35,493 bases of DNA, taken from UHGV virus genome UHGV-0231292; one strand, written 5' to 3'. The first letter of the stretch is position 1; the number at the start of each line of letters is the position of its first letter. The notes beneath the pieces are model-generated. The model had not been told where the DNA came from and searched no databases. It worked only from the letters and a program-made list of their open reading frames with translations. This document shows positions 8,073-35,307 of the stretch, piece after piece. This stretch comes from a virus. A program made the position numbers and the translations under genes.

Positions 8073-8086
8073 GGATTTAAAAATCC
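8073..8086. promoter_or_regulatory. Palindrome GGATTT-AA-AAATCC upstream of the parM-like gene (candidate operator/centromere)
   Basis: Inverted repeat read directly in the 76-bp A to parM-like spacer. Confidence 0.3.
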
Positions 8087-8123
8087 TGTAACCGATTAAT
8101 TAATCAACACAAGGAAAAGCGAC

Positions 8124-9083: not shown

Positions 9084-9087
9084 ACCA

Positions 9088-9399: not shown

Positions 9400-9462
9400 C
9401 ACAACATCAGGGCGAGTTCGCCCTGCTCTCCACCTCAGAACATAAACAAGGAGAACGACTTA

Positions 9463-10053
9463 ATGAGCGAAATCAACTATCAGGCATTACGTGAACGTTA
9501 TTCACCTGTGCCAGTACCGAAATGCCCTATTTGCGGCGAGGAAATGTCAATTCAGCGAATATCTGGAGCACAGGTTGTTTATGCCTGCTCCGGTTATGGT
9601 GATGATGGAGATTTCAAAATTGGCCGAACTCTTGCCGACGAACATTATGAAAAATCACGCGTAACAGTGTTGGATGTCGGGGATCCTGAAGTATTGGCGC
9701 TACTTGATTGGCTGGAAACCAAAGACAACCGAATCGCTGAACTGGAAAAAATCGCCACTGACTATGCACTTAAATTCCAGAAAGCACAGGACGCATTAAA
9801 GTATGCCGCTTTGCTGCATAGCAGGACGGCGCAACAAACAAATAATTTTGCAGTATCGCTTCCGGACATAAGCGAATATTTCATTAATGACGTATTTCAG
9901 CCCTTGCGATACGAGCGGGATGTTGAAAGAGCCATCATAAAGGCTGGCGGAAAAGCATTGTGGCAGGAGAAACACGAGGACAGAACGCATCAGTCCTGCG
10001 ATGTAAATCGTGGATGGTTTAGCCCACTGACGACAGATAAAAATAACACCTGA
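9463..10053 (+). CDS. Hypothetical protein with N-terminal Cys-rich (zinc-ribbon-like) segment and central helical region
   Basis: 196 aa; CPICGEE...YACSGYGDDGD then coiled-coil-like LALLDWLETKDNRIAELEKIATDYALKFQKAQDAL; strong RBS AAGGAGAA. Confidence 0.5.
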   Translation: MSEINYQALRERYSPVPVPKCPICGEEMSIQRISGAQVVYACSGYGDDGDFKIGRTLADEHYEKSRVTVLDVGDPEVLALLDWLETKDNRIAELEKIATDYALKFQKAQDALKYAALLHSRTAQQTNNFAVSLPDISEYFINDVFQPLRYERDVERAIIKAGGKALWQEKHEDRTHQSCDVNRGWFSPLTTDKNNT

Positions 10054-10092
10054 TCCCCCTCAAACCAGGGCGATAATCGCGCATCGCCCTGC

Positions 10093-10119
10093 TGCACAAT
10101 AGTGCACAAGTTTGCACAA
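10093..10119. repeat. Three direct TGCACAA repeats at exact 10-bp phasing (candidate protein-binding array near cos)
   Basis: cTGCACAAtagTGCACAAgttTGCACAAt read directly; a fourth TGCACAA lies at about 10185. Confidence 0.5.
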
Positions 10120-10162
10120 TTTTTTTGAACGACTTTTTACCCTTCCGGCCCGCATGGCGGCT

Positions 10163-10181
10163 GGATCCGTCAAGGATCCGT
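10163..10181. repeat. Tandem GGATCCGT direct repeat (11-bp period)
   Basis: GGATCCGTcaaGGATCCGT read directly. Confidence 0.4.
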
Positions 10182-10492
10182 GCGTGCACAAAAAAACGCG
10201 CTTTTTCTGCGCGCAGGTGACGGGGGAACAGCCCGCGTTTCAGGGGGTAAATAGCACTCCCTGAACGATGTCGCAGAGATACAACAGAATGGCTGTATTT
10301 CTCACGCTGAGCGTGAAAAAGACGTGAGGGCTTTTGATTTGATGGGGTGGCAGATAAGGCCGTCAAAATCGCACTGAGGCGGCGAAAACATGCAGTCAGC
10401 GCAGTGGGATTGCGTAAGAGTCTGACCGTCGATGATGGCAATAAGCAGGAAAGCGTCGTGAAATTATCTGATTGATACAGGAGCTGGAGAGT

Positions 10493-10517
10493 CGGGGCAT
10501 AAATTTTTTATGCCCCG
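10493..10517 (-). terminator. Stem-loop just downstream of Q on the minus strand (possible operon terminator)
   Basis: CGGGGCAT-loop(AAATTTTTT)-ATGCCCCG inverted repeat; no clear U-run, so weak. Confidence 0.3.
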
Positions 10518-10543
10518 GCGAAGCAGCAGACAAGCGAAGCGCG

Positions 10544-11590
10544 TCAGGATGTGGGCTGGGTGTCTAACAGTGCGTAAGGGTTAAAGCGGATCACCTCTTC
10601 GCCAAGCCAGTCATTGATGTGCTTCATGGCCTCCATGACAGGCATCAGCTCGTTAATTGCGTAAACCCGCGCGGCCTTCTCCACATCACCAAACGCACTT
10701 TTTTCGCCCGGCATCGCCCCCATCAGTTGCGGCGGAACGCGGTGCGCAGCCAGCACATCATCACGGGATGCCGCCTTAACATTCATGAACTCATCTTTTG
10801 CGGTGATCTGCTGGAACGGCAAAATTTGCACCCCCTCTTTGCCCCCGTTGGGCGCATGAATGAGCACGTTTTTAAATGCACCACCACCACGCGCACCCTG
10901 TAACGTTTCTTTCAGGGAGTCCATGCTTTCGCGGTTTACCTGCGCTGCACCGATGTAGATGATGCACCCGGCGTGGGATCCGTTGTCGTAGTACAGTTTT
11001 CTGAACATGTCCGCCGAATGAGAAAGGCTGGCCGAGAGTAATGCGCCAAGATATTCCGGCATGCCGTAGATTTCCTGGTTAATATCCGGATTCATCAGGT
11101 GGCACACTTTGCCAGGGCGAAACTGGAACGCGTCCTTGCCATCCTGCACATACCACCATGATTCAAGATCGCTTCCGCGTCGCATGTATTTCGCCAGGGC
11201 GTGCCGTAATTTAAGCGGTTCGCCGAGCATATTGCTACGAAGCTCAAGGAATGCGTTACCGAACACAAACCAGTCCAGCGCCAGCGCCGAGAAATCCTGC
11301 CGGGAAAACAGCGGGTGCGGGATGTAGCAACCGAGTAATACATTGCGCTTAAAGTAAAGCGCAGACTGATGCCAGGACGTTTGCCGGGCAGCTCTTGCCA
11401 GACCGTACCAGTCCACCGGGGTTTCATACCACCGCCCGTTATCAGCACAGTACATATTATCCAGCAGGTCATGCCCGGTCAGGCGATAAGGACCATCAAA
11501 TGTGAATGCACTGAGCGATGATTCTTTCCTGAGCGCATCAGCGAGATCAATGCGTGAACTCATGCGCACTTTTTTATTTTTTCTGCTCAT
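10544..11590 (-). CDS. Q: Portal protein (P2 gpQ-like)
   Basis: 348 aa; size, position and N-terminal pattern (basic N-terminus then FTFDGP...W) match P2 Q; cotranscribed with P. Confidence 0.9.
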   Translation of the reverse strand: MSRKNKKVRMSSRIDLADALRKESSLSAFTFDGPYRLTGHDLLDNMYCADNGRWYETPVDWYGLARAARQTSWHQSALYFKRNVLLGCYIPHPLFSRQDFSALALDWFVFGNAFLELRSNMLGEPLKLRHALAKYMRRGSDLESWWYVQDGKDAFQFRPGKVCHLMNPDINQEIYGMPEYLGALLSASLSHSADMFRKLYYDNGSHAGCIIYIGAAQVNRESMDSLKETLQGARGGGAFKNVLIHAPNGGKEGVQILPFQQITAKDEFMNVKAASRDDVLAAHRVPPQLMGAMPGEKSAFGDVEKAARVYAINELMPVMEAMKHINDWLGEEVIRFNPYALLDTQPTS

Positions 11591-13341
11591 CAGAACTCCA
11601 TAACCGTGAAACGCTCGTTTTCTCCTTCGCCGCCAATCGGTTCGTTAATGACAGCAAGCATGGTTGCCCACGCAAGGTCGCCGTGGCTGATCCCCCTCGC
11701 TCGGTCCGTTTCGTAAGTGATAAAGCCGCCCGGTGTTTTCACCTTACGCACGGCGTTAAAGGCCGCGACCAGCTCGCGTTCGGCGCGATCGTATTCCCAC
11801 CGCCCGGCACGCATTATTTGCAGCATTTTCAGTACCAGCGACCGTTTTGATGACAGCGTGAAGGTGTACGGAATAGCAGCAGGGAAAAACCGTTTCACTA
11901 TCTGATAAACAGCCTCCCCGTTCCCGCCCGTCACATCAATGCCGATGTGTTCCACGTTATAGCGACACGTGAACTCTTCAATGACTCTGGCCTGTTCTTC
12001 AAACTCCAGCCCCTGAACGCGTCGCGTCTCCACCGTTCGAAAACGGCCACCAGGAACAGCCGGAGGAACCACCACGGACACAGCACCGCTGTCGCCGTTG
12101 CCACTGCTGCCGTTTGCGTCATACCCAATCCATACCGGACGATTCCCCATCGGGCGGGGAGCAAAAGGTTTCCAGTCTTTCCAGTCGTCGTATCCGTCAA
12201 CACCGCAGCCAATCAGGATATTCAGGTTAAATGCCGATTCCCCTTCGCGGACAAACTCACACATATAGAGATTGAGGAACTCGTCTTCGGTGTTTTCATC
12301 ACGAATTTCGTCGATATCGGTGTGTTTCCAGCCGTGATTAACCACATCTTCCAGCGTGACAATTTGCCGCCAAGTCCGGTCAGGGCAGATAAGCCCGTTA
12401 TGCAGCGTTTTCCAGTCCACAGAAAAACGCTGGCGTTTATGCGAAGCCTTTTTCTCGTTCCAGCGGTCGCCGTTCCAGTAGGCGTACGCCTCGTGCGTTT
12501 CGGTGGATGGCGTGGAGAAGTAGGTGCGCCGCAGTCCGCTGAGGGTTGCCATAGCGCCAGCCACCTTGCGCAGTTCAGCAAAGCGACTGACCCAGAAAAA
12601 TTCATCAAAATAAAAATTGCCCGTATAGGACTGTGCCGACGCAGCAGAAGTGCCGAGAAAATGCAGCTCTGCGCCGTTGGAGAGGATGATTTTATCGCCC
12701 CCTTTCAGCTCCACATCAACTTCAGCCGCGACCTTCTGAATAATGCTTTTAAACTGGAACGCCTGACGACGCGACGCAGACAAAAAAATCTGGTTACGCT
12801 GGTAAGGTTGCGCCACATCGTCACGCAGCGCCATCAGCAGAGCTTCCTGTGCAAAATACCAGGTCGCCCCAATCTGTCGGGATTTCAGGATCATCCTGTT
12901 ACGTATCCCGGCTTCCCTGCAAAGTGTCAGGGAGTCAAACCAGCCCCGCTGATGCCACTCCAGCCTGCTGATGATTTTTTCCCGCAGTGCGGCAATCTGT
13001 TCCGGCGTGAAATGATTTTTAAGTTTTTTCGCCCGGCCTTTCTTTCCTGCGGCCATCACATCCGGCTGGCCATCATGCAGCTTTTTAAGCTGCCGGGTCA
13101 GCAGGTCTATTTCCTTAAAGTCACCGCCTGTTTTATTCTGTTTTTCAGTAAGCTGGATGAGGCGCGCATCGATGGACTGCGTGACACGCTGCACGGGGGG
13201 CGTTTCATCCCACTGGTCGCGTTTTTTCCACGCATAAATCGTGTTCGGGTTTATTCCCATCAGACGTGATATTTCTGCGGGCGGATAACCCTGCCAGTAA
13301 AGTTGCCGCGCACGCTGGCGCACAAAAGCGTCCTGAATCAT
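11590..13341 (-). CDS. P: Terminase large subunit / ATPase (P2 gpP-like)
   Basis: 583 aa; N-terminus MIQDAFVRQRARQLYWQGYPPAEISRLMGINPNTIYAWKKRDQWDE characteristic of P2 P. Confidence 0.9.
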   Translation of the reverse strand: MIQDAFVRQRARQLYWQGYPPAEISRLMGINPNTIYAWKKRDQWDETPPVQRVTQSIDARLIQLTEKQNKTGGDFKEIDLLTRQLKKLHDGQPDVMAAGKKGRAKKLKNHFTPEQIAALREKIISRLEWHQRGWFDSLTLCREAGIRNRMILKSRQIGATWYFAQEALLMALRDDVAQPYQRNQIFLSASRRQAFQFKSIIQKVAAEVDVELKGGDKIILSNGAELHFLGTSAASAQSYTGNFYFDEFFWVSRFAELRKVAGAMATLSGLRRTYFSTPSTETHEAYAYWNGDRWNEKKASHKRQRFSVDWKTLHNGLICPDRTWRQIVTLEDVVNHGWKHTDIDEIRDENTEDEFLNLYMCEFVREGESAFNLNILIGCGVDGYDDWKDWKPFAPRPMGNRPVWIGYDANGSSGNGDSGAVSVVVPPAVPGGRFRTVETRRVQGLEFEEQARVIEEFTCRYNVEHIGIDVTGGNGEAVYQIVKRFFPAAIPYTFTLSSKRSLVLKMLQIMRAGRWEYDRAERELVAAFNAVRKVKTPGGFITYETDRARGISHGDLAWATMLAVINEPIGGEGENERFTVMEF

Positions 13342-13495
13342 TGCTCCCCCTGAGTAATTACAGGAAGATTACCCGCGCGCGAAACCGTTCTCCTTAACCC
13401 CCTGTTCTGGCCGTTTTCTTACAACAAAAGCCCTTTGTATCAGCCTGTTACGCTTTGCCATCATGACTGAAGAACCAGTCAGAGGGGCAAAAACT
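13342..13495. promoter_or_regulatory. Divergent late promoter region between P and O
   Basis: Position equivalent to P2 P_P/P_O; contains TGT...ACA half-sites but no canonical TGT-N12-ACA Ogr site was found. Confidence 0.35.
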
Positions 13496-14332
13496 ATGGC
13501 TAATGAAAAAAAGACATCCCGCAAAAAGTTTCGCGTGGCTGTCTCCGGATCAACTGTTGATGGCCGCGAAATCAGTCCGGTACATCTGCGTGAAGCCGCC
13601 GAGAACTTCAACCCGGATGTTTACGCTGCCCGCGTGAACGTTGAGCACTATCTCTCGCCATGCCCGTCAAGCGAATTTTCCGCAATGGGCGATGTCACCG
13701 CGCTGAGTACGGAAGATATTACGGAAGGCCCGCTGGCCGGACGTACTGCGCTGTATGCAGAAATCGAACCGACCGAGCGCATGAAGCAGCTTGTCGCTGA
13801 CGGCAAGAAAATCTATTCCAGTATCGAACTGCACCCGCAGTTCTCCGTTAACGGGCGCGCCTATCTGGTCGGGCTGGCGATGACCGACACCCCGGCAAGC
13901 CTGGGCACTGAGCGCCTGAAATTCACGGCACAGCAACGTCAGGCGGTGATGACGTTCAACAGTGTCCAGGGTGAAGCACCGCTTATCTCCGAAGCCATCG
14001 AGTCTGAAATCATCGAAATGGCAGAACAACGCCAGGAAGAAGGCACCCAGTGGTTTAACCGCGTAATGGGGATTATTGGCCGTGGCCGCAAAGCGGATGA
14101 CGCCAGTTTCTCCCGCATTCAGGAAGCGGTGGAAGGCGTCGCAACGTCACAGGCCGACATTATCGACCGTTTTAATGCACTGGAAACCCGCCATCAGCAG
14201 GACAGCCAGAAAATCACTTCACTGACCACAGAGCTGGCAGCACTGAAGGAAAAACTGCGCACGCAGGACGGAGATCCGCAGAACCGGTTCACCGCAACGG
14301 GCGCAGCCTCCGACCAGCTGGCTGACTTCTGA
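13496..14332 (+). CDS. O: Capsid scaffolding protein (P2 gpO-like)
   Basis: Start set to the ATG at 13496 after RBS AGAGGGG; KKFRVAVSGSTVDGREISPVHLREAAENFNPDVY and YLVGLAMTDTPASLGTERL match gpO. Confidence 0.85.
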   Translation: MANEKKTSRKKFRVAVSGSTVDGREISPVHLREAAENFNPDVYAARVNVEHYLSPCPSSEFSAMGDVTALSTEDITEGPLAGRTALYAEIEPTERMKQLVADGKKIYSSIELHPQFSVNGRAYLVGLAMTDTPASLGTERLKFTAQQRQAVMTFNSVQGEAPLISEAIESEIIEMAEQRQEEGTQWFNRVMGIIGRGRKADDASFSRIQEAVEGVATSQADIIDRFNALETRHQQDSQKITSLTTELAALKEKLRTQDGDPQNRFTATGAASDQLADF

Positions 14333-14355
14333 TAAGACAAAGGAGCAAATTTTTT

Positions 14356-15408
14356 ATGAATCTGGTGATGTCAGATATTACCCGCAACAAGCTGGGTTGC
14401 TATATGGCGCAGCAGGCGTCGCTTAACAATATCCCGGTTTCCGCACTGGTATCGCGATTTACCGTGGAACCCTCGGTACAGCAGCGTTTTGAAAACGCCT
14501 CAAAGGAAAGCACCGAATTTACAAAAAGAATTAACGTGATCGGCGTGACCGACCAGAAAGGCGAAAAAATCCTCCTGGATACCACCGGGCCGATTGCGCG
14601 CACGAATACCAGTTATGACGGCACAAAACGCCGTAACCCGAATAACGTGGTTGATCTGAAAAACCGCAAATACCAGTGCGAACAGGTGAACTACGACACG
14701 TTTATTTCATATCCGCAGCTTGATGCCTGGGCGGCACACCCTGATTTTCAGTCCCGCATCAGCGCACAGATTGCCCGACAGGTGGCACTTGACCGCATCA
14801 TGATCGGTTTCAACGGCACGTCTCACGCGGATGAGTCTAACTTCAGCACCAACAAGTTGCTTCAGGACGTTAACGTGGGCTGGCTGGAGCACATCAGAAC
14901 CGACGCCAGCGAACGCGTTATGAATAACGTGACGCTGACCTCCCGTAACATGGACAACACCGTGGCGCACGCGGGTAAGTATGCGAACGCTGATGCACTG
15001 GTACAGGACGCGCGCTCATCCCTGCTGGATGAATGGCACAAGGAAGCAGACGACCTCGTGGTGATTATGGGGCGCAACCTGTTTAACTCGCTGCGTCTGC
15101 CCGTGCTGAACAGCATCAGCGGCCAGAATCCCAATGCGGAATTACTCGCCGGACAGCTCATTCTGTCATCGCGCACCATTGGCGGGCTGGGCGTGTTCCT
15201 TGCGCCGTTCTTCCCGGATTCAACGATGCTGATCACCTCGTTCAACAACCTGTCGATTTACTGGCAGAAAGGTTCAATGCGTCGTCTGATGAAAGACGAA
15301 CCGGAATACAACCGCATCGCCACCTACCAGTCCATCAATGACGCTTATGTCGTTGAAGACTATGGCAAGTGCGCGATGGTCACTGGCCTGAAGTTCGCCG
15401 ACAGCTAA
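14356..15408 (+). CDS. N: Major capsid protein (P2 gpN-like)
   Basis: 350 aa; FTVEPSVQQRF, GEKILLDTTGPIA, DRIMIGFNG, VEDYGKCAMV match gpN. Confidence 0.9.
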   Translation: MNLVMSDITRNKLGCYMAQQASLNNIPVSALVSRFTVEPSVQQRFENASKESTEFTKRINVIGVTDQKGEKILLDTTGPIARTNTSYDGTKRRNPNNVVDLKNRKYQCEQVNYDTFISYPQLDAWAAHPDFQSRISAQIARQVALDRIMIGFNGTSHADESNFSTNKLLQDVNVGWLEHIRTDASERVMNNVTLTSRNMDNTVAHAGKYANADALVQDARSSLLDEWHKEADDLVVIMGRNLFNSLRLPVLNSISGQNPNAELLAGQLILSSRTIGGLGVFLAPFFPDSTMLITSFNNLSIYWQKGSMRRLMKDEPEYNRIATYQSINDAYVVEDYGKCAMVTGLKFADS

Positions 15409-15453
15409 TCAACTCACGGCGGGCATCATGCCCGCCTGTAACGGAGAGAAAAA

Positions 15454-16254
15454 ATGATTACTCCTGCACAACAACACTGGCAGAACGTGATGGCACAGCG
15501 CGCAGGCCGGGCGAATGAAGGCGTGGACCACGCCGCGCGTACCGCGCATGAAGAGGTGCTGTATCGTCTGCGTCTGGCACAGGCCCGGCTTAAGGGCGTA
15601 CAGGCCAGAAGCGCGAAAGCCGCCATCAAAAAAGAGTTGTTGCCGGATTTTTCCGGCTGGATTGAGGGAACGCTGGAGGCTGACGGCGGGCAGCAGGATG
15701 AAGTGATTGCCACGCTGATGGTGTGGGCGATTGACTGCGGCGATCTTCCGCTTGCGTTGCGTATTGGTGCGTATGTGGTCCGTCATAACCTCATCATGCC
15801 GGATAACTTTGGCCGTACTGCTGCCACGGTACTGACCGAAGAAATCTGCAACCCGGTACTGACGCAGGCCGGGACGGATGCTGACGCGGATTTGTCCGCC
15901 TTTATCGAACCACTGGACACCCTCCGGGAGATTGTCACAGACCAGGACATGCCGGACGAAGTGCGCGCCAAATTATGCAAGGCGTGCGCCTTTGCCCGTC
16001 GTGGTCTGACCGATGCAGACAACATGGCCTTATCACTGAAGCTGCTGCGCGAAGCGATGCACCTGAACCCGAACGCAGGTGTGAAACGCGAGATTGCAAC
16101 CCTTTCCCGCGCCCTGAAAAAAGCCGATTCCGCAGCCGAACCAGAAGACGCCAGCGCACAGCAGGCGCAGGACGAAAACAGCAAAAGTAAAAAGACAACG
16201 CGGAAGCCTGCAACACGAAAAACCACCGCGACGCAGAAGGCGAAGCGCGGTTAA
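15454..16254 (+). CDS. M: Terminase small subunit / endonuclease (P2 gpM-like)
   Basis: 266 aa; MPDEVRAKL and basic C-terminal tail typical of gpM. Confidence 0.85.
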   Translation: MITPAQQHWQNVMAQRAGRANEGVDHAARTAHEEVLYRLRLAQARLKGVQARSAKAAIKKELLPDFSGWIEGTLEADGGQQDEVIATLMVWAIDCGDLPLALRIGAYVVRHNLIMPDNFGRTAATVLTEEICNPVLTQAGTDADADLSAFIEPLDTLREIVTDQDMPDEVRAKLCKACAFARRGLTDADNMALSLKLLREAMHLNPNAGVKREIATLSRALKKADSAAEPEDASAQQAQDENSKSKKTTRKPATRKTTATQKAKRG

Positions 16255-16356
16255 CGACTGACCCCGTCAGCGGGCGGCGTGCGCGGTGTTCCGGTTTGAC
16301 TCCGTGACCGTTTACACCGCGCACCCACCGCCCGATTTTTTTCAGGAGTGAACCCC

Positions 16357-16851
16357 ATGAGTATGGTTGCCAGAACTGAACCCAGACCCGCAGAGGACGA
16401 CATCACCGATACCGATGATGGAGATACCCGCATTTCAGCGGGTGCATTCTGGCCGGATATTGTGTTGCGCGAGCTGCGTCTGGCGGTACGACTGCCGGGG
16501 CGCGTGACCACCTCCCGCCTGCTGCATACCGCCACCGGGGCCGTGGCACACGTTACCCGCGAGCTGGAAGCGTGGCAGCAGGAACAGCAGGCGGCTGGCC
16601 ATCAGACGCTGGCCGATGTTCCGGCACCCGTAATTAACGGAGAAAGCGTCAATCTCTGGCACTGGCGCAATGCCGTTTATACCGCCACACGCGCCCTGAT
16701 TCTGGAGCGTTACCGCGATGCGGACACAACGGATAAGGGCGACCGCCGGGCGGACGCACTGGATATACAGACATCGGATTTGTGGCGCGATGTGAGCTGG
16801 GCCATCTCTGACATTCTGCGCCGCCCGCGAATCTTTGCGGAGCTGTGCTGA
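16357..16851 (+). CDS. L: Capsid completion protein (P2 gpL-like)
   Basis: Start set to the ATG at 16357 after AGGAG; position and size match gpL. Confidence 0.8.
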   Translation: MSMVARTEPRPAEDDITDTDDGDTRISAGAFWPDIVLRELRLAVRLPGRVTTSRLLHTATGAVAHVTRELEAWQQEQQAAGHQTLADVPAPVINGESVNLWHWRNAVYTATRALILERYRDADTTDKGDRRADALDIQTSDLWRDVSWAISDILRRPRIFAELC

Positions 16852-17051
16852 TGAAAGTGAAGGCACTGGAAGGCGACACCGTGGATTCGCTCTGTTTCCG
16901 GTACTACGGCACGACGCAGGGCGTCACCGAAAAGGTGCTGGATGCCAACCCCGGACTCTGTCAGCAGGTATTTCTGGACGCCGGGCAGGAAGTGGAGATG
17001 CCGGAGCCGGAGAAGAAGAAACGAGAAATGATTCAGTTGTGGGGGGAGTAG
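16851..17051 (+). CDS. X: Tail protein X (LysM-like, P2 gpX)
   Basis: 66 aa; MKVKALEGDTVDSLCFRYYGTTQGVTEKVLDANPGL matches gpX; start overlaps L stop (TGATG). Confidence 0.75.
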   Translation: MKVKALEGDTVDSLCFRYYGTTQGVTEKVLDANPGLCQQVFLDAGQEVEMPEPEKKKREMIQLWGE

Positions 17052-17053
17052 CA

Positions 17054-17377
17054 GTGAGCACCATTCAAACAGGGATCACAGAGCAGGTTATTGCGTGGCT
17101 CTTTGACCACCTGCCAACGGTGTATGCAGTAGGCGCGGCAGTCAGCATTTCCGCGCTGATGAGTCTTTATGACGGACGAACACTGGTTCAGACCGTAACG
17201 GGATCGCTGGCGTGCGGCGTTCTTGCCATGGCCGTGGCCGGGTCGTTGCGCTTCTTCGGGTTTCCTGAAGATGCCGTGACGTTTATCGGCGCATCAATCG
17301 GTTTTATGGGCGCAGAGAAAGCACGCGACAAGGTTATTGCGGCCTTTAATCGCAGGGTGAAGGAGAAGGACGAATGA
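17054..17377 (+). CDS. Y: Holin-like membrane protein (gpY position)
   Basis: GTG start; 107 aa with two to three hydrophobic segments and a charged C-terminus (RRVKEKDE); immediately precedes the endolysin. Confidence 0.5.
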   Translation: MSTIQTGITEQVIAWLFDHLPTVYAVGAAVSISALMSLYDGRTLVQTVTGSLACGVLAMAVAGSLRFFGFPEDAVTFIGASIGFMGAEKARDKVIAAFNRRVKEKDE

Positions 17378-17766
17378 GCAACACATTTAAATTCAGCAGC
17401 CGGAGCGAAAAGAATTTGCAGGGCGTAAATCCTGATCTGGTGAAAGTGACCCGACGGGCACTGGAAATTTCGGAAGTGGATTTTGGTATCACCGAAGGGT
17501 TGCGCAGCCGTTACCGCCAGAAGCAACTGGTGGCCACAGGTAAGAGCCAGACCATGAACAGCCGCCACCTTACGGGGCATGCCGTGGATGTTGTGGCTTA
17601 TGTCGGCAGCCAGGTGTCATGGGAATGGCCGCTGTACGAAAAAATCGCAGCAGCATTCAGACAGGCCAGCCGGGAGCTGAATATTCCGGTGGAATGGGGC
17701 GGCGACTGGAAGACCCTGAAAGACGGACCGCATTTTCAGTTGCCACACGGAGCCTATCCGGCATGA
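17374..17766 (+). CDS. Endolysin, peptidase M15 (zinc D-Ala-D-Ala / L-Ala-D-Glu peptidase) type
   Basis: 130 aa; SRHLTGHAVDV ... GPHFQL zinc-binding H-x6-D...H pattern; replaces the P2 K lysozyme. Confidence 0.7.
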   Translation: MSNTFKFSSRSEKNLQGVNPDLVKVTRRALEISEVDFGITEGLRSRYRQKQLVATGKSQTMNSRHLTGHAVDVVAYVGSQVSWEWPLYEKIAAAFRQASRELNIPVEWGGDWKTLKDGPHFQLPHGAYPA

Positions 17767-18170
17767 AGCTCTGGCCCACGCTTGGCGTCGCTTTCCTTCT
17801 GATTGCCGCATGGGGAACATCCATGCGTCTGTCGTGGTCGCTGGGCAGGGAGAACGCCAGAAACGAAGCGCAGGCCAGCGCCCTGAAAAGTACCGTCGAC
17901 ACCCTGAATATCATCAGCGCTGGGGTACAGGATATGCAGCAGGTGCTGGCGCAACTCCGCGTGGAAAATCAGCAACGCAATCAGGACGGAGAGGCAAGAC
18001 GTGAACAGCTACGCAACGATATTGCAAAAGATGAATGCGCCCACGCTTTGCCTGACGCTCGTTTTACTGACAGGCTGCGCAGGCACGCAGAACGCGCCAC
18101 GGCCAGCGCCGTCAGTCCGGCTTATACCGCAGACGCTGACCATACCGGTAACGCCTCCCCCCTTCCCTGA
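17763..18170 (+). CDS. lysB: i-spanin (Rz/LysB-like)
   Basis: Start at the ATG overlapping the endolysin stop; N-terminal TM LWPTLGVAFLLIAAWG then coiled-coil region. Confidence 0.6.
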   Translation: MKLWPTLGVAFLLIAAWGTSMRLSWSLGRENARNEAQASALKSTVDTLNIISAGVQDMQQVLAQLRVENQQRNQDGEARREQLRNDIAKDECAHALPDARFTDRLRRHAERATASAVSPAYTADADHTGNASPLP

Positions 18171-18321
18171 CTCTCCCACATGGGGAAATCTCGGTATATG
18201 GGGCGACCGCCTTCTGGATGCACTGGAAACCTGTAACGCGGATAAACGGGCCATTGAATTGCTGGAACAGCGCAGGCTGCAACGACTGAACAACGAGGAT
18301 AACAACCATGCTGAAAACTGA
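18031..18321 (+). CDS. lysC: o-spanin lipoprotein (Rz1/LysC-like), overlapping lysB
   Basis: Internal ATG gives MNAPTLCLTLVLLTGCAG with lipobox LTGC; proline-rich; overlaps lysB in another frame. Confidence 0.5.
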   Translation: MNAPTLCLTLVLLTGCAGTQNAPRPAPSVRLIPQTLTIPVTPPPFPDSPTWGNLGIWGDRLLDALETCNADKRAIELLEQRRLQRLNNEDNNHAEN

Positions 18322-18775
18322 TTCCCTGCGTGAAGCCATGACCCGTTCATGCCGATGGTGTCAGGCTAACCCGGAAAAATTCACCATTTTCGTGGAGAGC
18401 GGCAACATTGAAACGACCGGAGAAACGCCCTCGTTTGTTTACCGCTATCAGATGGTGATGTTTGTCATGGATTACGCCGGGGAGCTGGACGACCTCACGC
18501 TGCCGCTGCTGGCGTGGTTATCCGAAAATCAGCCACAGTTGTTGCTCAACCCTGAGCGTAATCAGGACATCAAATTCTCCGCCGTTATCAATGACGATGA
18601 CAGCGCCGATCTCCTGTTTACACTCCCCCTGCGGGAACGCGTTCGCATCACGCGCAGCAGTCAGGGCACACCGCAGGCAGAGCACCTGCCGGAGCCAAAA
18701 CCCCGCCTGCCATCTTCCGAAGGCGACTGGTCGCATGTATTCCAGGATGTGACGTGGGGTGAAAGCGATGGATAA
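18308..18775 (+). CDS. R: Tail completion protein (P2 gpR-like)
   Basis: 155 aa; MLKTDSLREAM... and LAWLSENQP match gpR. Confidence 0.8.
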   Translation: MLKTDSLREAMTRSCRWCQANPEKFTIFVESGNIETTGETPSFVYRYQMVMFVMDYAGELDDLTLPLLAWLSENQPQLLLNPERNQDIKFSAVINDDDSADLLFTLPLRERVRITRSSQGTPQAEHLPEPKPRLPSSEGDWSHVFQDVTWGESDG

Positions 18776-19403
18776 GGCATTCACCCGCGTGGATGAAACC
18801 TTTGAGGCTATCCGCGACAGCCTGAATCAGCAGGCCATCAATAACATCGCCAGAAAGCTGGCACACGATTTACGTCGCGCCCAGCAGGCACGCATCCGGT
18901 CACAGAAAGCGCCGGACGGGACCGCATGGACACCACGCAGACGCCGTGTAACCCGGATACAGGAGCGCATTCGCTTTATCTGGAATAACGAAGCACGCAC
19001 ACTGAAAAACTGGCATCACGACACGGGGAAATACGGGCGAACCATTACCGGGTGGGATGAGGATAAAAACAATATCCGCACGTTTTACCGGGATGACATC
19101 GACCGCTTTCTGGAAATACGCACCCGGCGCATCAACCAGGACAGCACAAAGCGCGTCCCCATGTTCGTAAAACTGCGCACCGCCCGCTACCTGAAAGCCC
19201 GTGCGGATACTTCCGGTGTGACGGTGGGTTACAGCGGCGTGGCTGCACGTATTGCACGCGTTCATCAGTTCGGTGAGCGCGATCAGGTTGCGCCGGGCAT
19301 TTTCACCGATTACCCGGTACGTGAGCTGTTGGGCATCAGTCAGGCAGATGAACGCCTGATTTATAACACGGTGCTGGGCCGGATTGCGGAGGCTGTACGG
19401 TGA
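18768..19403 (+). CDS. S: Tail completion protein (P2 gpS-like)
   Basis: Start at the ATG overlapping R stop; position between R and V; longer than P2 S (about 211 aa). Confidence 0.75.
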   Translation: MDKAFTRVDETFEAIRDSLNQQAINNIARKLAHDLRRAQQARIRSQKAPDGTAWTPRRRRVTRIQERIRFIWNNEARTLKNWHHDTGKYGRTITGWDEDKNNIRTFYRDDIDRFLEIRTRRINQDSTKRVPMFVKLRTARYLKARADTSGVTVGYSGVAARIARVHQFGERDQVAPGIFTDYPVRELLGISQADERLIYNTVLGRIAEAVR

Positions 19404-19981
19404 GTGCAGAACTCATGCGACTGCTGAGCAACATCATCCGCACCGGGATCATCTCTGAAGTTGATGAGAAGTCCTGGCGCGTTCGCGTTCGCAGTGGCGA
19501 ACTGGAAACAGGCTGGCTGCGCTGGAACACCACGCGCGCGGGAGCCTTCAATGTATGGTTGCCACCATCACCTGGCGAACAGGTGGTAATTGCCTGCATC
19601 GGCGGCAATCCGGAAACCGCCATGATAATCGGCAGCCTGTGGAGTGATGCCATTCCGGCCCCCGGCAAAAGCCTGAAAGAAATCGTGGTCAGCGCGCCGG
19701 ATGGCGCGGTGTTCCGCTACGACGCAGACGCAGGCGCACTGAGCGCCAGCGGCATGAAAACAGCCACCCTGCAGGCATCCGTCAGTGTGACACTGGACAC
19801 GCCTGTCGTGGAATGCACAAACCTTCTGAAAACAGCCGAGATTGACGTCACAAAAGGGGGAAAGATGAGCGGCAATATCACGCACAGCGGCGGCGATTTC
19901 ACCTCAAACGGCATCACAGTGCATACGCATAAACACGGTGGCGTTAAAGGTGGCAGCGATTCGACAGGAGGCCCGCAGTGA
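19400..19981 (+). CDS. V: Baseplate spike / central hub protein (P2 gpV-like)
   Basis: 193 aa; IRTGII, TGWLRWNTTRAG, GEQVVIACIGGNPETAMIIGSLWS, HTHKHGGVKGGSDSTGGP match gpV. Confidence 0.85.
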   Translation: MSAELMRLLSNIIRTGIISEVDEKSWRVRVRSGELETGWLRWNTTRAGAFNVWLPPSPGEQVVIACIGGNPETAMIIGSLWSDAIPAPGKSLKEIVVSAPDGAVFRYDADAGALSASGMKTATLQASVSVTLDTPVVECTNLLKTAEIDVTKGGKMSGNITHSGGDFTSNGITVHTHKHGGVKGGSDSTGGPQ

Positions 19982-29181: not shown

Positions 29182-29694
29182 TCAGCCAAGCCCGAGCGCG
29201 GAACGGATGCGATCGGGCACAATGTCCTTGCCGTCCTTCCGGTAAATGAAGTTCAGCAGGTCAATCTCCCACAACGGGCGATCGTTAACACTCAGCTTGT
29301 AGTAGGTGTTTTTAATGGCGTAAGTGTGTGATGTAGCTTCGCCCTGTTTGGCTTCCCCCATATCAATTTCCGTCACACGTCCGCGCATTTCGACTTCATA
29401 CAGGTCGCTTTCTGCATCGGTGTAATATTCACCCGCAAAACGCAGCAGCGTGCCGTCAATCGTGCCGCCATACTTAAGGAACAGCTCACGAACTGCGCCC
29501 CCCATGACAAAGCTCGCATCAAGCGCGGAGTCGTCCAGACCGAGATCAATACTTACCGCACCCATCATGCCACCACCCCGGTAGCTGTCGGTTTTGCGCG
29601 TCAGCTTAGGCAGAGTGACGGACGTCACCTTACCCACTTCGTTTTCACCATCCACAAACAGCGTAAAAAAGCGAAGATGTTTTGGTACAGCCAT
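29182..29694 (-). CDS. FII: Tail tube protein (P2 gpFII-like)
   Basis: 170 aa; GKVTSVTLPKLTRKTDSYRGGGMMGAVSIDLGLDDSAL, RFAGEY, VEMRGR match FII. Confidence 0.85.
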   Translation of the reverse strand: MAVPKHLRFFTLFVDGENEVGKVTSVTLPKLTRKTDSYRGGGMMGAVSIDLGLDDSALDASFVMGGAVRELFLKYGGTIDGTLLRFAGEYYTDAESDLYEVEMRGRVTEIDMGEAKQGEATSHTYAIKNTYYKLSVNDRPLWEIDLLNFIYRKDGKDIVPDRIRSALGLG

Positions 29695-30878
29695 CAGGCA
29701 CCTCCCAGCACCGCAAATGCGGGTTCAAAGTATTCATCAGTAAACGTCTGGTAAAGCTCCATGTCTTCCAGTGGCGGAACGGGCGTATATTTGTAGCGAA
29801 TACGCACACGCCCCTGACGTAAATCCGTGGTGCTGTTATCCACCACGTCATACCAGCACTCCGCGCCAATCAGTTTCCCGGCAGTAACCAGCGAATCCAG
29901 TTTTGCCCTGATGGCACTGATAACATCCTTCACGTTCGCAGGCGTCAGTGGACTGTCGATGGTTTCAAACTGCGCTTCCGCAATTGAATCAGCCAGCACC
30001 TGTGCGGTTCGGGTATACACCTCAAAGATGTAGGCGTTCGTTTCCGGTGTGCGGTTGCCCCAGAAGCGGAACCCGTTGCGACGAATAATGGTCGTGATTT
30101 CTTTGTTGTTGAGGCTGTTGGCATCACTGTCTTCGGCCTGCAACGACCAGAAAACATGCCTGGACATCCCCAGCACATTTTTAACAGGAACGTTGGACAG
30201 CGATTTGTGCCAGCCCTGCTCATGGTCAATGTACGCACGAAGGCCGCACGCATAGGCAGGCGCGGGGAACGTTTCGTTTTTGCCACTTTTCGGGTTGTAG
30301 GCGATGAAGTCCGGCCATAAGAGCATCACCTCACGTTCGTTGAATTTCTGGCGGTAGGTAATTGCCTCAGCCATCGTGTTACAGTCATGACATGAGGCAT
30401 ACACAAACGCGCGCAGTTTACCCGCAATCACGCACAGGGATTTTGTCACCGCCTCCGTGTCCAGCTCCGGCGCGGCCAGAATACGCGGACGGTATCCGAT
30501 GCTTTCATCCTGCTCTGCAACAAGCAGCGCATACATCCCCGTATAGCTGCCGTCAGATTCAGAACCACCGATAACCAGTTGATCCTGCGTCTTACCGCCT
30601 TCTTCTTTGTGTTCAGCCACGCGAACGACGATCACTTTTGTGCTCACCTGGTCTGCAATAGCCTTAAGCGCACGATAAAGCGTCCCCGTAGTCCCGCATT
30701 TTCCCAGCACGTCATTGACGCGGGTCAGCAGTGTGGGCTTGTTCAGCGGGAACAGCTCCGCGTCCGCATCATCCGCCGTTGCCACGATACCGATAACACT
30801 GGAATCAACATCATTAATCGCTGTTACCAGGTCGGTACTTTCCGTAACACGGGCACCATGAAAACGAGTTTCACTCAT
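29694..30878 (-). CDS. FI: Contractile tail sheath protein (P2 gpFI-like)
   Basis: 394 aa; TADDADAELFPLNKP, QGWHKSLSNV, IRRNGFRFWGNRT, YKYTPVPPLE match FI. Confidence 0.9.
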   Translation of the reverse strand: MSETRFHGARVTESTDLVTAINDVDSSVIGIVATADDADAELFPLNKPTLLTRVNDVLGKCGTTGTLYRALKAIADQVSTKVIVVRVAEHKEEGGKTQDQLVIGGSESDGSYTGMYALLVAEQDESIGYRPRILAAPELDTEAVTKSLCVIAGKLRAFVYASCHDCNTMAEAITYRQKFNEREVMLLWPDFIAYNPKSGKNETFPAPAYACGLRAYIDHEQGWHKSLSNVPVKNVLGMSRHVFWSLQAEDSDANSLNNKEITTIIRRNGFRFWGNRTPETNAYIFEVYTRTAQVLADSIAEAQFETIDSPLTPANVKDVISAIRAKLDSLVTAGKLIGAECWYDVVDNSTTDLRQGRVRIRYKYTPVPPLEDMELYQTFTDEYFEPAFAVLGGA

Positions 30879-31035: not shown

Positions 31036-32136
31036 ATGACCGATACCACCATGCAATTGCTCAGTCAGAGCACAGACCCCGTGAAAATGCCGGATTTTGA
31101 TATTCTCGCGGAGGGGGAAACACTGTCCAGCGTGGCAGAGCGCCTGATGAGCCTGTCACTGACCGACAACCGGGGATTTGAAGCGGACCTGCTCACCATC
31201 ACGCTGGATGATGCGGATGGTCAGTTGCAGCTACCGCCACGGGGCGCGCGCCTGACGGTTCTCATTGGCTGGAAAGGAGAACCGCTGACAGAAAAAGGCA
31301 CTTACATTGTTGATGAAATCGCTCACGAAGGACCGCCGGACAGGCTGACTGTTTCAGCCAGAAGCGCAGATTTTCGGGATGAATTTAACGTTAAACGTGA
31401 GGTGTCCTGGCATGATGTGACCGTTGAGCGCGTGGTATCCGCCATCGCTCATCGGTACGGTCTGAAACCACAAATCAGCGAAATGCTGATGGATATTGAA
31501 ATCGACCACGCCGACCAGACCGAAGAAAGCGACATGTCCTTCCTTACGCGCATGGCGGAAATGCTGGGCGCAATCACTACGGTAAAAAGCAGTAATCTGT
31601 TATTCATCATGCCAGGCGGTGGCGTGAACGCACAGGGCCAGCCGTTGCCATCGTTCGCCATCACGCGCAGCAGTGGCGATCGCCATCAGTTCCGCATTGC
31701 TGACCGCGAAGCGTATACGGGGGTACGTGCTTACTGGCTTGATCTTAATTACGGGAAAAAGAAAAAAGTCAGCGTGAAACGCCGCAAACCGAAAAAGGAG
31801 AAAAGCAGCAGCCGTGAAGGTGACTATATGGAAGGTGCGGAAGGCAACGTGTTTGTGTTACGCAAGACTTATCAGAACGAGCAGGCAGCAAGACGTGCAG
31901 CGGCGGCAAAGTGGCAGCAGCTACAACGCGGAGCCGCATCATTCTCCATCACGCTGGCGCGTGGACGCGCAGAACTCTATCCCGAAATGCATGGCACGGT
32001 GACAGGCTTCAAAAGTGACATCGATAATCAGGACTGGATTATTGCAAAAGCCGAGCACACCATTGATAACAGCGGCTTTACCACACAGCTTGAGCTTGAA
32101 GCAAAAATCCCGGAATGGATAGCAGAAACAGAATGA
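31036..32136 (+). CDS. D: Late control / tail protein D (P2 gpD-like)
   Basis: Start at the ATG after GGGAGGG; LTDNRGFEADLLTITLDDADGQLQLPPRGA, SARSADFR, WHD, basic KKKKVSVKRRKPKKEK stretch, GFTTQLELE match gpD. Confidence 0.85.
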   Translation: MTDTTMQLLSQSTDPVKMPDFDILAEGETLSSVAERLMSLSLTDNRGFEADLLTITLDDADGQLQLPPRGARLTVLIGWKGEPLTEKGTYIVDEIAHEGPPDRLTVSARSADFRDEFNVKREVSWHDVTVERVVSAIAHRYGLKPQISEMLMDIEIDHADQTEESDMSFLTRMAEMLGAITTVKSSNLLFIMPGGGVNAQGQPLPSFAITRSSGDRHQFRIADREAYTGVRAYWLDLNYGKKKKVSVKRRKPKKEKSSSREGDYMEGAEGNVFVLRKTYQNEQAARRAAAAKWQQLQRGAASFSITLARGRAELYPEMHGTVTGFKSDIDNQDWIIAKAEHTIDNSGFTTQLELEAKIPEWIAETE

Positions 32137-32535
32137 GCAAATTAGATGTATTGACTCAAACCAGAACTGACACACTCACAGCACAGTGCCAGACCCAATC
32201 TGGCAGCCCGCTTTGTGCCTAGAGCAGGTGTTGCTTATGTAACAGTTAATCCACGGATAGTGGTCATGAATGCTGGTTGAAGTTGTATTGCCATGAGTGG
32301 TCAATTAGGGACTCACTTATTATCGCGTGCTCACCATTGATGGGTAAGATCATGCATTTCGGCTACTGTACTTCGCGAATCCTCCGCACACAGGCAACAC
32401 CTGATTTAAGAACAGAGGGAGATGATGACGCAAGGAAGATTTATTATCGTGCATGTGGCAGATGATCTTTTAGCTGCCGGAGTGATAAATTACACCTATT
32501 TTCGATAAGTGTTTTTGTTATAGAACATTAATTTC

Positions 32536-33675
32536 GTGGGAAACAATAAAGTGAAATTAGGAAGAAATGATAAGTGCTGGTGTAATTCAGGACTTAAGTA
32601 TAAAAAGTGCCATCTTGGTCGAGATCGTGAAACTCCGGTATCCAAAGCCGAGGCACTGAAATTTTCAAAGTCTCTCTCGCAGAGAAAGGCATGTTATGCG
32701 CCAGCATCCATGCACGAAGATTGTGATAAACGCATCGTTCAGGCGCATACGATATCTAAGAGCAGTAGCCTTAAGGCGATCGCCGACTCCAGCAATCACG
32801 TCATGGGGGTGATAATGAACTTAGCAAGCCTGATGAGAAACAACGGAAAATGGCTTCCCGAGAAGATCGGTATCAATCAGGCATCCACTTTTACAGGATT
32901 TTGTGCAGTTCATGACAGAATCTTATTTTCATGCCTAGAGAACGAAAAATTTACAGGCACGGACGAGCAGTGCTTTGCCTTAATGTTTCGTTCATTGTCT
33001 AAAGAAATTTATGCCAAAGAAGGGGGAGTGCTATCTTCTGATTTTGCTAAAAATGCCGATAAAGGAAAGCTACAAGTTGAACAGTATTATATTCAGAAAT
33101 TAATCGACCAGCACCAAAGTGGCTTAAATGCAGCAATAATTGAATTAAATAATCTTAAAACTAGCCTCGACCGCATCCTACTTAGCAGGCAATTTTCAGA
33201 AATTGAAAGTGTTATCTTCACTTTTGCAGAGCCTTTACCAATTGTAGTTTCGTCAATTCTTTCACCGGAGAGGGATTTCGATGGGACCAAAATTCAGGAT
33301 TTGAGCGATCTTACAGTGTCGGCGGAACAAGTATGTTTCAATGCTTTTTCCTGCGGAGGTAAGGGATATGTAGTGTTCAGTTGGCTGAGAACTTCAACAA
33401 TTATCAGACGTTTTATACGGACACTAATTAAGATCCCAGCTAACAGGATGTTCAATACCCTTCTGTATTTTTTCTTCACAAAGGCCGAAAATACATATTC
33501 ATCCCCTGAGTGGTGGGACAGGCTCAGTGATAAACAGCGAGAGAATATCGGCAACATGATTATGTCAGGGGTTGAATTTTTTGGCAGACCTACATCACAG
33601 GTTGATCATTCCGTTGATTATAACGCCGCTGCACTTGAAGAGATAACATGCAGCAACAACGAAATTTGCAGCTGA
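32536..33675 (+). CDS. SEC-C metal-binding-motif protein of unknown function in an AT-rich island
   Basis: 379 aa; N-terminal CWCNSGLKYKKCH matches the SecA/YecA SEC-C zinc motif (C-x-C-x8-C-H); non-ATG start (GTG at 32536 or 32551); AT-rich versus flanking phage genes. Confidence 0.55.
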   Translation: MGNNKVKLGRNDKCWCNSGLKYKKCHLGRDRETPVSKAEALKFSKSLSQRKACYAPASMHEDCDKRIVQAHTISKSSSLKAIADSSNHVMGVIMNLASLMRNNGKWLPEKIGINQASTFTGFCAVHDRILFSCLENEKFTGTDEQCFALMFRSLSKEIYAKEGGVLSSDFAKNADKGKLQVEQYYIQKLIDQHQSGLNAAIIELNNLKTSLDRILLSRQFSEIESVIFTFAEPLPIVVSSILSPERDFDGTKIQDLSDLTVSAEQVCFNAFSCGGKGYVVFSWLRTSTIIRRFIRTLIKIPANRMFNTLLYFFFTKAENTYSSPEWWDRLSDKQRENIGNMIMSGVEFFGRPTSQVDHSVDYNAAALEEITCSNNEICS

Positions 33676-33964
33676 ATGTTTACATGCTGTTAGAAAAAGC
33701 GGGCTGAACAATCATTTCGGGATTGTAACAGATAAGATGGCACTGCCCGCTTGCTTCCCGATATGCACCTCAGCCAATAAACTTATGTAAGCAACCGATT
33801 TCCATTTATGCGGAGGTTATCAAAGTTGTTGGAGTTGCGAACTTCCGCTCTTCGCACAAAGCGTACCGCTAGGTTTGATTGTATTCTGGCTGCGCAAACT
33901 GTCAGTTGGAGTCTGAGCTATTACAACTTAGAATAGCGGCAGCACCACGTTAAGGGAGGTCGCT

Positions 33965-34225
33965 ATGTTCCGTTGTCCGCTTTGTGGCGCATCTGCCCGA
34001 ATCCGCACCAGTCGTCCGGAAAACGATTCAAACACTGTGCGGCAAAAGTATTACCAGTGTAACAACCTGGAATGCGGCGTATGCTTCTCAACACTGGAAG
34101 CTTTCCATAAATTCACATCAAAACACGCCTCCGGCGTTCACTCTTCGGAAGGTATCCCGTGGCATGAGCTGCCAGCTTCACACAGGGGAAACAATCAGAT
34201 GAGTTTGCCTTTACCTCAGAATTAA
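33965..34225 (+). CDS. ogr: Late gene transcription activator, zinc-finger (P2 Ogr / Delta-like)
   Basis: 86 aa; MFRCPLCGASARIRTSR...YYQCNNLECGVCF Cys4 finger (C-x2-C-x22-C-x4-C); RBS AAGGGAGG. Confidence 0.85.
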   Translation: MFRCPLCGASARIRTSRPENDSNTVRQKYYQCNNLECGVCFSTLEAFHKFTSKHASGVHSSEGIPWHELPASHRGNNQMSLPLPQN

Positions 34226-34415
34226 CAGGCAGAATTGCCGGAGTAACAAAAAAACGATAGATTACCCGCGGGTGCCTTTCGGCTGATGGTCGGAGGAATA
34301 CCCGAAGGCCGGATGTGGAAAGGCCCCGGAAAACATTTCTGTTTAACCGAGGCCCTAACATATCTACCTTAAGCAAGTGATAGGTTAGCGCCTCTCCAAC
34401 AAAGGAGCAAGCGCT

Positions 34416-34556
34416 ATGTCGCAAAAATCGCTTACAGCCATCACGTTCTGCGTGACGGTAATCCTCATCATCTGGATGCTACACGGTTCGCTGTGTGAAA
34501 TACGGATGAGCTTCTGGGGAGCGGAGTTTGCGGCGTTCTTACAGTGTAAGCAGTAA
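34416..34556 (+). CDS. hok: Hok/Gef-family type I toxin (46 aa)
   Basis: MSQKSLTAITFCVTVILIIWMLHGSLCEIRMSFWGAEFAAFLQCKQ: TM helix plus SLCEIR...AAF signature; RBS AAAGGAG; below ORF-track cutoff. Confidence 0.65.
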   Translation: MSQKSLTAITFCVTVILIIWMLHGSLCEIRMSFWGAEFAAFLQCKQ

Positions 34557-34744: not shown

Positions 34745-35026
34745 TTACTCAGCATTCTCCTGCTTCCATTGCCGGATCATTTCATCGGTAACATCACCCT
34801 CATAACATACCACGTCATACCCTCCATTACGGCTATATGCACTGCGTCCACCACATCTACTACCATTCCTTGCATGATTATAAGGACACGCACAATTGCC
34901 TGGATAAGATTCAATGGATTCTTTAATTATTTCTTTTTTGATCTGAGCATCAGACTTTCCTGTTGCTGCATATCCACTAAAAGATACTAAACAAAGGCAG
35001 ATTGCCATTAATAAACCACATCGCAT
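34745..35026 (-). CDS. Small secreted Cys-rich protein of unknown function
   Basis: Start set to the internal Met giving signal peptide MRCGLLMAICLCLVSFSGYAA; mature part has 4 Cys (NCACPYNHARNGSRCGG...VVCYEG); AT-rich. Confidence 0.4.
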   Translation of the reverse strand: MRCGLLMAICLCLVSFSGYAATGKSDAQIKKEIIKESIESYPGNCACPYNHARNGSRCGGRSAYSRNGGYDVVCYEGDVTDEMIRQWKQENAE

Positions 35027-35307
35027 ACCGATACACTCTATTACTAACCAATCATAGCCCACATCATAAAATCGAGATGAGGAGTACAATACCTTTAACA
35101 AGAAGGTGTCATAACGATAATATGTCGTGCAATTCATCAAAAAAAAGATCTATATCAAAGAGATAGAACTCTTATCAGTGCTTCAGACATCGGCATTCGA
35201 GGCAGCAGAAAAACAGTAAATCTGACGAATTTGCCTTTTCCCAAGATGTTGTCAGATTAAAAAGATAGATTAGCGCAGGTACCTGTTGGTGGATTGCAGG
35301 AGGAAAA

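Follow-up and report, generated by a model that had tools for sequence, protein, structure and literature searches.

Rugutis is one of seven new antiphage systems found in the lactococcal plasmidome (Grafakou et al. 2024, PMC11381338) and has so far been validated in one Gram-positive genus, Lactococcus. Encoded by one gene, it takes effect once the DNA has been injected, blocking neither adsorption nor DNA entry; protection is seen at a multiplicity of infection (MOI) of 0.05, and at an MOI of 5 the cultures die or stall, a behavior resembling abortive infection. In 2025, Mosterd et al. (PMC12184496) reported that all escape mutants of phage c2 are altered within the large terminase's (TerL) ATPase domain, and that induction of c2 TerL is more toxic in Rugutis-positive cells. 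Here, a relative of Rugutis is described from the 35 493-nucleotide virus genome UHGV-0231292 (hereafter the window, meaning this whole stretch), a complete-looking P2-like Escherichia coli prophage with a recognizable gene set. Between its late genes gpD and ogr lies an insert of about 1.78 kb that encodes a protein of 379 amino acids (aa). Judged by homology, this insert is probably a mobile one-gene cassette carrying an abortive infection-like antiphage gene of the Rugutis family, which sits as a moron in an accessory slot of a P88-like prophage.

The relationship is apparent from a tblastn search of plasmids with the window protein, which matched a 359-aa SEC-C protein (WP_137016746.1) of pUCCL633A, the plasmid that carries Rugutis (pUCCL633_059). 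In BLASTP, residues 5–347 of the window protein align with residues 3–336 of Rugutis at 26% identity (E 2e-37). A profile–profile comparison (hhalign) of the gammaproteobacterial clade (42 sequences) with the Firmicutes Rugutis clade (30 sequences) yields a probability of 100% and an E-value of 1.4e-69 over 327 columns, and Rugutis itself has the same SEC-C motif at residues 8–26 (E 3.2e-6). By homology, the two proteins form one family. The window protein shares every sequence and structural feature of Rugutis that was compared: a stand-alone gene of roughly 360–380 codons on a mobile element, an N-terminal SEC-C motif of the form CxCx8C[H/C], a core that is homologous throughout and has Cys, His, Asp, and Arg invariant at the same positions, and a confidently predicted fold without a neighbor in the PDB. 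The differences lie in the low identity, the Gram-negative host, the location in a P2-like prophage slot rather than on a plasmid, and the fourth metal ligand, which is His here and Cys in Rugutis. While Rugutis was already known as a defense family, the proteobacterial, prophage-borne member is new. The family reaches E. coli pathotypes, and its cassette occurs in a slot of a P2-like prophage, in a P4-like island of Salmonella, and in another integrated element of E. coli EH53; it is now placed in the most tractable phage–host system.

The SEC-C motif of the window protein was recognized with Pfam PF02810 (residues 10–27; E 2e-8; 34.4 bits versus a cut-off of 20.4), and a search of PDB sequences returned SecA and YchJ peptides for the same segment. 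The ligands C14-W-C16-x8-C25-H26, together with Ser18 and Tyr22, make up the full signature of SecA-like metal-binding domains, in which a Ser and an aromatic residue are conserved besides the Cys/His ligands (10.1101/613315). The resemblance of the N-terminus to SEC-C, noted in the initial annotation, is thereby borne out by a canonical CxCx8CH. The same annotation had contrasted this position with the C-terminal one in SecA and YecA; the N-terminal placement is correct, but has precedents in YchJ and in the methionyl aminopeptidase model NF008970, which aligns through its positions 1–33. Beyond SEC-C, no family was found for the core (about residues 45–379) in Pfam, PHROGs, NCBIfam, or PADLOC, including searches with the 42 family members, nor among PDB sequences with either single-protein or family-profile queries, and the predicted fold has no neighbor in the PDB or BFVD. 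The earlier statement that some 320 residues lack a recognizable domain therefore stands, yet the protein has a full-length homologue in Rugutis.

In the AlphaFold2 model, the SEC-C knuckle (residues 10–27) is followed by two short helices, a four-stranded sheet (67–123), a helix (124–135), a long helical hairpin (143–217), a second four-stranded sheet (223–284), and a helical C-terminal part. No membrane segment is predicted; the top Kyte–Doolittle 19-mer scores 1.6 and falls on a predicted strand pair. Conservation was assessed in 388 family sequences, including Rugutis and two homologues without SEC-C. H71, C123, H126, D127, and F131 occur in all 388, C63 and R152 in 387, and C53 in 383, the remainder being gaps; position 135 is E or D throughout, K161 is kept in 97%, and E318 and N319 in about 95%. 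As fourth ligand of SEC-C, 266 sequences have H and 108 have C. With this abundance of invariant Cys, His, Asp, Glu, and Arg residues, the protein looks less like a passive scaffold than like the seat of a metal site, a catalytic site, or both. Because homologues without SEC-C exist, among them WP_011977806.1 of pKPN5 (hhalign E 4.5e-25, residues 39–348) and a Priestia plasmid protein, the core appears to be the conserved functional unit and SEC-C an accessory N-terminal module. On the Klebsiella pneumoniae plasmid pKPN5 (stretch 1–4134), the 380-aa SEC-C-less homologue is preceded, on its own strand, by genes for a large P-loop NTPase and for an uncharacterized product of 260 aa, an arrangement that may represent a multi-gene variant of the system.

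Several known folds were considered for the core and rejected. A ββα segment with H126/D127 recalls HNH or His-Me finger nucleases, but the motif is out of register and neither a Pfam HNH match nor a fold match was obtained. The H...HD...D pattern of HD-domain phosphohydrolases is at odds with a model that is not all-alpha and with D175, which is not conserved in the Rugutis clade. The Lys of PD-(D/E)xK nucleases is not conserved, and none of the 42 family members matches DUF4238 (PF14022), a one-gene defense of P2 hotspots, at E ≤ 1, despite an AHxI(S/Q)..L..IA motif. A weak match of Rugutis to NadA (E 0.0038) invites speculation about an Fe–S site.

The 379-aa gene is the only open reading frame (ORF) of the cassette with homologues or annotation, in agreement with the lone ORF with a non-ATG start described initially. 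Two in-frame GTG codons may serve as its start. The one at 32536, chosen in RefSeq, is common to the cassettes of the window, EH53, and Salmonella and lacks a Shine–Dalgarno sequence; the one at 32551 has a GGGA 9 nt upstream and fits the MK(L/I)GRN N-termini of many homologues, and is GAG in EH53. The choice is ambiguous.

The gene is real and selected, as indicated by its numerous homologues and its substitution pattern. A word-indexed search returned 296 homologues at E ≤ 1e-3. An exhaustive profile search of 1.84 billion representatives of 50%-identity clusters returned 7545 matches at E ≤ 1e-3, 3513 at E ≤ 1e-10, and 1480 at E ≤ 1e-30; nearly all of the best 150 are 360–390 aa long and align end to end. 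Against the 86%-identical copy of E. coli EH53, the synonymous (dS) and nonsynonymous (dN) divergences are 0.51 and 0.066, giving a dN/dS of 0.13 that is alike in all five gene segments; the gene is under purifying selection. The identical protein is found on at least 1000 contigs, and 80 of 5426 complete E. coli genomes carry the gene at ≥99% DNA identity. These carriers, from cattle and humans, are mostly of the Shiga toxin-producing E. coli (STEC) type (O26, O103, O111, O157). It is intact in 78 of them; in the other two, the O111:H11 strains 88.0502 and 88-19539, it is split by the IS4-like element ISVsa5, and is thus occasionally inactivated by insertion. The family is rare in sequenced free phages, as only two Listeria phage records were matched by tblastn among 50 697 phage records.

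Relative to phage P88, which lacks it, the insert spans about 32147–33923. Its GC content is 0.423, compared with 0.533 for gene D and 0.518 for the whole window, and the value at third codon positions (GC3) is 0.411 versus 0.578; the insert is compositionally foreign. The AT-rich insertion of about 1.8 kb between D and ogr that had been noticed at the outset is hence real, although the gap of roughly 90 bp given for P2 does not apply to the empty relative P88, where 42 nt separate the D stop codon from the ogr ATG. P88 has a single copy of the 9-bp repeat (GAACTTAGA); in the window, copies of the repeat flank the insert on both sides (Table 1).

Similar boundaries recur in the occupied slots examined. 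D and ogr flanks were found in 1217 complete E. coli genomes, 80 of which hold the Rugutis-like cargo. In an evenly spaced sample of these flank matches, most alleles are empty, spanning 614–616 bp; the others encode a 261-aa DUF2971 protein or a 389-aa DUF3800 protein (both on the minus strand), a 356-aa PIN-domain protein, or unnamed proteins of 340 and 132 aa. The D–ogr interval is therefore a polymorphic cargo slot that is usually empty and takes up one gene at a time. When the five alternative cargos were compared with PADLOC, from which Rugutis is missing, the only match was that of the DUF2971 protein to the candidate PDC-S31 (E 5.4e-27). The DUF2971 occupant was located at 860–1645 of the stretch examined in E. 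coli RIVM_C019217. Its domain is shared with Aristaios, another plasmid defense system validated in the lactococcal plasmidome; the DUF2971 gene is an alternative slot allele, its product unrelated to the 379-aa protein and not a homologue of it. Relatives of two Lactococcus plasmid systems, Rugutis and Aristaios, thus alternate in one E. coli prophage slot.

Every cargo allele seen is bracketed by the direct repeat CAA(A/C)TTAGA, and its inner ends are conserved and inverted; ends resembling the left inner end of the window also flank other cargos, and all cargo alleles seen share the right-end element at their right boundary. This looks like a target-site duplication with terminal inverted repeats, or like a deletion between direct repeats. 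Some 140 further complete E. coli genomes contain copies of the right-end element of about 85 bp (a hairpin plus TCAGTTGGAGTCTGAG) that are roughly 76–82% identical to it, with about 78% at unrelated loci. Two such loci that were inspected are unrelated sites beside accessory genes, one a nadS remnant and the other an integrase/DUF4365 pair, and the EH53 cassette ends in an 83%-identical copy.

The published hotspots of P2-like phages are gpA–gpQ (old/tin), the Z/fun locus downstream of gpL, int–att, and int–primase (Rousset et al. 2022, PMC9122126; PMC13586616). The gpD–ogr slot resembles them in its low-GC, variable cargo between core genes, swapped between near-identical prophages, and in cassettes that are also found in other mobile elements; it differs in being usually empty, in holding one gene each time, and in the 9-bp direct repeat with conserved inverted ends. 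Neither of the two surveys mentions ogr or gpD; the cargo slot documented here goes unnamed in the main surveys of P2 hotspots.

The cassette is mobile. Window positions 32230–33822 are 83% identical to a Salmonella P4-like island, which holds an 86%-identical copy; there, the gene lies between an integrase and AlpA/DUF927 primase genes, a few genes from a PARIS-type AAA_15/21 plus DUF4435 pair. In E. coli EH53, an integrated element that also carries RepL and H-NS genes matches positions 32487–33925 at 83% identity. The contexts of more remote homologues comprise the edge of a Klebsiella aerogenes prophage, a Pseudomonas island that also bears an integrase and a zeta toxin, a mobilizable element of Firmicutes, and a Streptococcus suis island with type III restriction–modification and STAND-like genes. 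The family is usually carried on mobile elements.

Upstream of the gene, positions 32230–32535 are about 80% identical to the DNA preceding the Salmonella homologue, apart from a 12-bp indel. This noncoding stretch of about 300 bp, which travels with the gene, may be a promoter or regulatory region. The 389-bp upstream region contains no conserved ORF (a 62-aa ORF with a TTG start at 32277–32465 has no Salmonella counterpart), no Rfam family, and no significant RNA fold (z-scores −1.7 and −1.4); a long inverted repeat in it shows, by eye, no compensatory changes in the Salmonella copy. A type III toxin–antitoxin organization of the ToxIN type was considered and rejected, given that 32147–32535 has no tandem or multi-copy repeats and that the RNA fold z-score is only −1.7. 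A consensus scan found no σ70 promoter upstream of the gene, and both promoter and terminator sites were no more frequent than in shuffled sequence. Past the stop codon, the G+C-rich inverted repeat at 33697–33752 may mark the transcript end; it has no T-run and was not called by the terminator scan.

By analogy with Rugutis in Lactococcus, we infer the following course of defense in E. coli. A soluble 43-kDa protein would be made in the lysogen and kept inactive. Upon injection of foreign phage DNA, it would respond, directly or indirectly, to the large terminase (ATPase domain) of that phage, and the activated protein would arrest or kill the cell, protecting the lysogen population. The core of about 300 residues would act as the effector, probably a metal-dependent enzyme with a site comprising C53, C63, H71, C123, H126, D127, E135, and R152, residues that provide a list for mutation. 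As the metal-binding domain of SecA binds SecB and ribosomes (10.1101/613315), the SEC-C motif may bring the protein to the machinery of translation or targeting, in the role of an accessory module for targeting or interaction whose partners might be ribosomes or SecB. SEC-C tails are also present on E2-like and PDC-S12 proteins in PADLOC. Since the prophage encodes its own large terminase, gpP, the protein would have to ignore it or stay silent late in induction; this resident terminase offers a natural self/non-self control.

A more far-reaching pair of proposals is put forward tentatively and is considered rather unlikely. In the first, the Rugutis core would represent an enzyme fold not seen before, dependent on metal and having a site of the Cys3/His type plus H71/D127/E135/R152; SEC-C would tether the protein to ribosomes or SecB, and there it would recognize the large terminase of an incoming phage during its synthesis and shut the cell down. 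If true, thousands of uncharacterized ‘YecA family’ proteins would be one large defense family with a new sensing logic. In the other, a dedicated mechanism would swap single-gene cassettes in the gpD–ogr slot, as suggested by direct repeats of 9 bp, by inverted ends and their conservation, and by the occurrence of the right-end element at the boundaries of other accessory genes of E. coli.

A defense function of the cassette has to be weighed against several observations. The antiphage role of the E. coli allele, and of all proteobacterial members, is predicted by homology, and with an identity to Rugutis of only 26%, both trigger and phage range may be different. In the case of Rugutis, TerL of escape mutants is still toxic on co-expression, which leaves the assignment of the trigger incomplete (PMC12184496). 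The metal or active site is putative, being assigned from conservation. The scan of the upstream DNA gave no consensus promoter, so that expression in the lysogen is presumed; the position downstream of the late gene D implies that read-through would co-express the protein with the prophage's own terminase. Finally, two of the seven homologue contexts have no obvious mobile or defense neighbors.

RefSeq names the 379-aa product ‘YecA family protein’, as would befit a housekeeping protein of the YecA or SecA type. What the window protein has in common with SecA, YecA, and YchJ is the SEC-C motif (CxCx8CH with the conserved Ser and aromatic residue, N-terminal also in the YchJ copy), but nothing beyond these roughly 20 residues. 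The YecA-type model NF007704 aligns by positions 197–220 of its 221 only, scoring 17.9 bits against a cut-off of 149, and the protein has neither UPF0149 nor the motor ATPase domain of SecA. The motif is N-terminal here, and the gene does not belong to the core genome, being prophage-borne and present in just the 80 carrier genomes. A housekeeping function is scarcely credible; it is refuted by the domain content, and the annotation is wrong. Relatives bear the same name because Rugutis is, as reported, not included in PADLOC and DefenseFinder. A mis-annotated and very large family is hereby tied to an experimentally validated defense system, with its conserved residues defined. That the gene is a decaying or unexpressed passenger is very improbable: the missing consensus promoter and the two genes split by the IS4-like element point that way, but the low dN/dS, the uniform length of about 370 aa in the best 150 representatives, the 1480 clusters at E ≤ 1e-30, and the exact protein on at least 1000 contigs do not agree with decay.

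Two other functions can be envisaged for a selected gene in this position. One, as opposed to a general host defense, is that of a weapon or regulator with which mobile elements compete (for example in P2/P4 helper–satellite relations or terminase-dependent packaging), directed mainly at satellites or related P2-like phages. Such a role would fit the genetic link between Rugutis and the large terminase, the 86%-identical copy on a P4-like island of Salmonella (with integrase, AlpA, and DUF927 primase), and the location of the window copy between late genes of a helper-type phage. Plasmid-borne Rugutis, however, protects Lactococcus from unrelated virulent phages in a setting devoid of P2 or P4, and homologues also reside in elements unlike P2 or P4, which renders this role improbable. 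The other is a host-modulating or fitness moron, whose SEC-C acts on SecB or ribosomes in STEC lineages, or a selfish, toxin-like stabilization gene, in either case without an antiphage role. It draws on the binding of SecB and ribosomes by the SecA domain, on the largely STEC-type carriers, and on certain Lactococcus strains that would not take, or kept unstably, some Rugutis constructs. Given that the core and not SEC-C is the conserved unit, that the nearest characterized relative is a defense system, and that both the slot and the surroundings of the homologues resemble those usual for defense cargo, we regard a purely host-directed function as unlikely. An abortive infection-like antiphage gene remains the probable explanation, and the initial suggestion that this single-gene island is a candidate antiphage or host-modulating module gains support, on its antiphage side, from the homology to Rugutis and the polymorphic slot.

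Table 1. Features of the cassette, its flanks, and other prophage genes in the window (coordinates in nucleotides; direct repeats and ends unstranded).
Feature	Position	Strand	Description
Integrase	226–1227	−	
gpA	5180–8047		
Portal	10544–11590	−	
Large terminase gpP	11590–13341	−	
Sheath	29694–30878	−	
gpD (late control D/tail protein)	31036–32136	+	Left conserved slot flank; Pfam PF05954, E 1.1e-17; RefSeq coding sequence coordinates
Left 9-bp direct repeat	32138–32146	.	CAAATTAGA; junction alignment, interval extraction
Left inner end	32147–32172	.	TGTATTGACTCAAACCAGAACTGACA; 20/26 identical to reverse complement of right inner end
5′ noncoding part of cassette	32173–32535	+	
Rugutis-family protein gene	32536–33675	+	379 aa, 42.7 kDa, pI 8.5; GTG start; same coordinates in RefSeq
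SEC-C/SecA-like metal-binding motif	32563–32616	+	Residues 10–27; ligands C14, C16, C25, H26; Pfam PF02810
Rugutis core	32668–33570	+	Residues ~45–345; AlphaFold2 model, pLDDT 89.1; conservation
G+C-rich inverted repeat	33697–33752	+	AAGCGGGC...GCCCGCTT; 22 nt past stop codon
Right-end element	33840–33925	.	Hairpin CCGCTCTTCGCACAAAGCG plus TGTCAGTTGGAGTCTGAGCTATTACA (33900–33925)
Right 9-bp direct repeat	33924–33932	.	CAACTTAGA; junction alignment
ogr (late transcription activator)	33965–34225	+	Right conserved slot flank; Pfam PF04606, E 5.1e-14; RefSeq
hok/sok	34270–34556		Directly downstream of ogr

The nearest sequenced phages are P88-like members of Xuanwuvirus (Peduoviridae), and in E. 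coli O103 RM8385 the prophage adjoins pgsA and a tRNA-Leu/Cys/Gly cluster. The longest ORF of gpD begins at 30904, upstream of the RefSeq start at 31036. Within the hok/sok locus, which is kept in P88-like phages, a hok/gef ORF occupies 34416–34556, and a sok-like RNA was matched by RF01794 (E 1.5e-8) at 46.7 bits, which falls short of the gathering score of 59. Right after gpA, at 8124–9083, a ParM/StbA-type actin-like segregation protein is encoded (PF06406, E 3.7e-82); it lies in the gpA–gpQ hotspot, where P2 has old/tin, and is an unusual cargo for an integrated prophage. Near the prophage end, the very AT-rich ORF 34745–35140 (minus strand, GC 0.35–0.41), for which RefSeq has a shorter hypothetical protein at 34745–35026, encodes a product with a stretch of hydrophobic residues at its N-terminus and with several cysteines.

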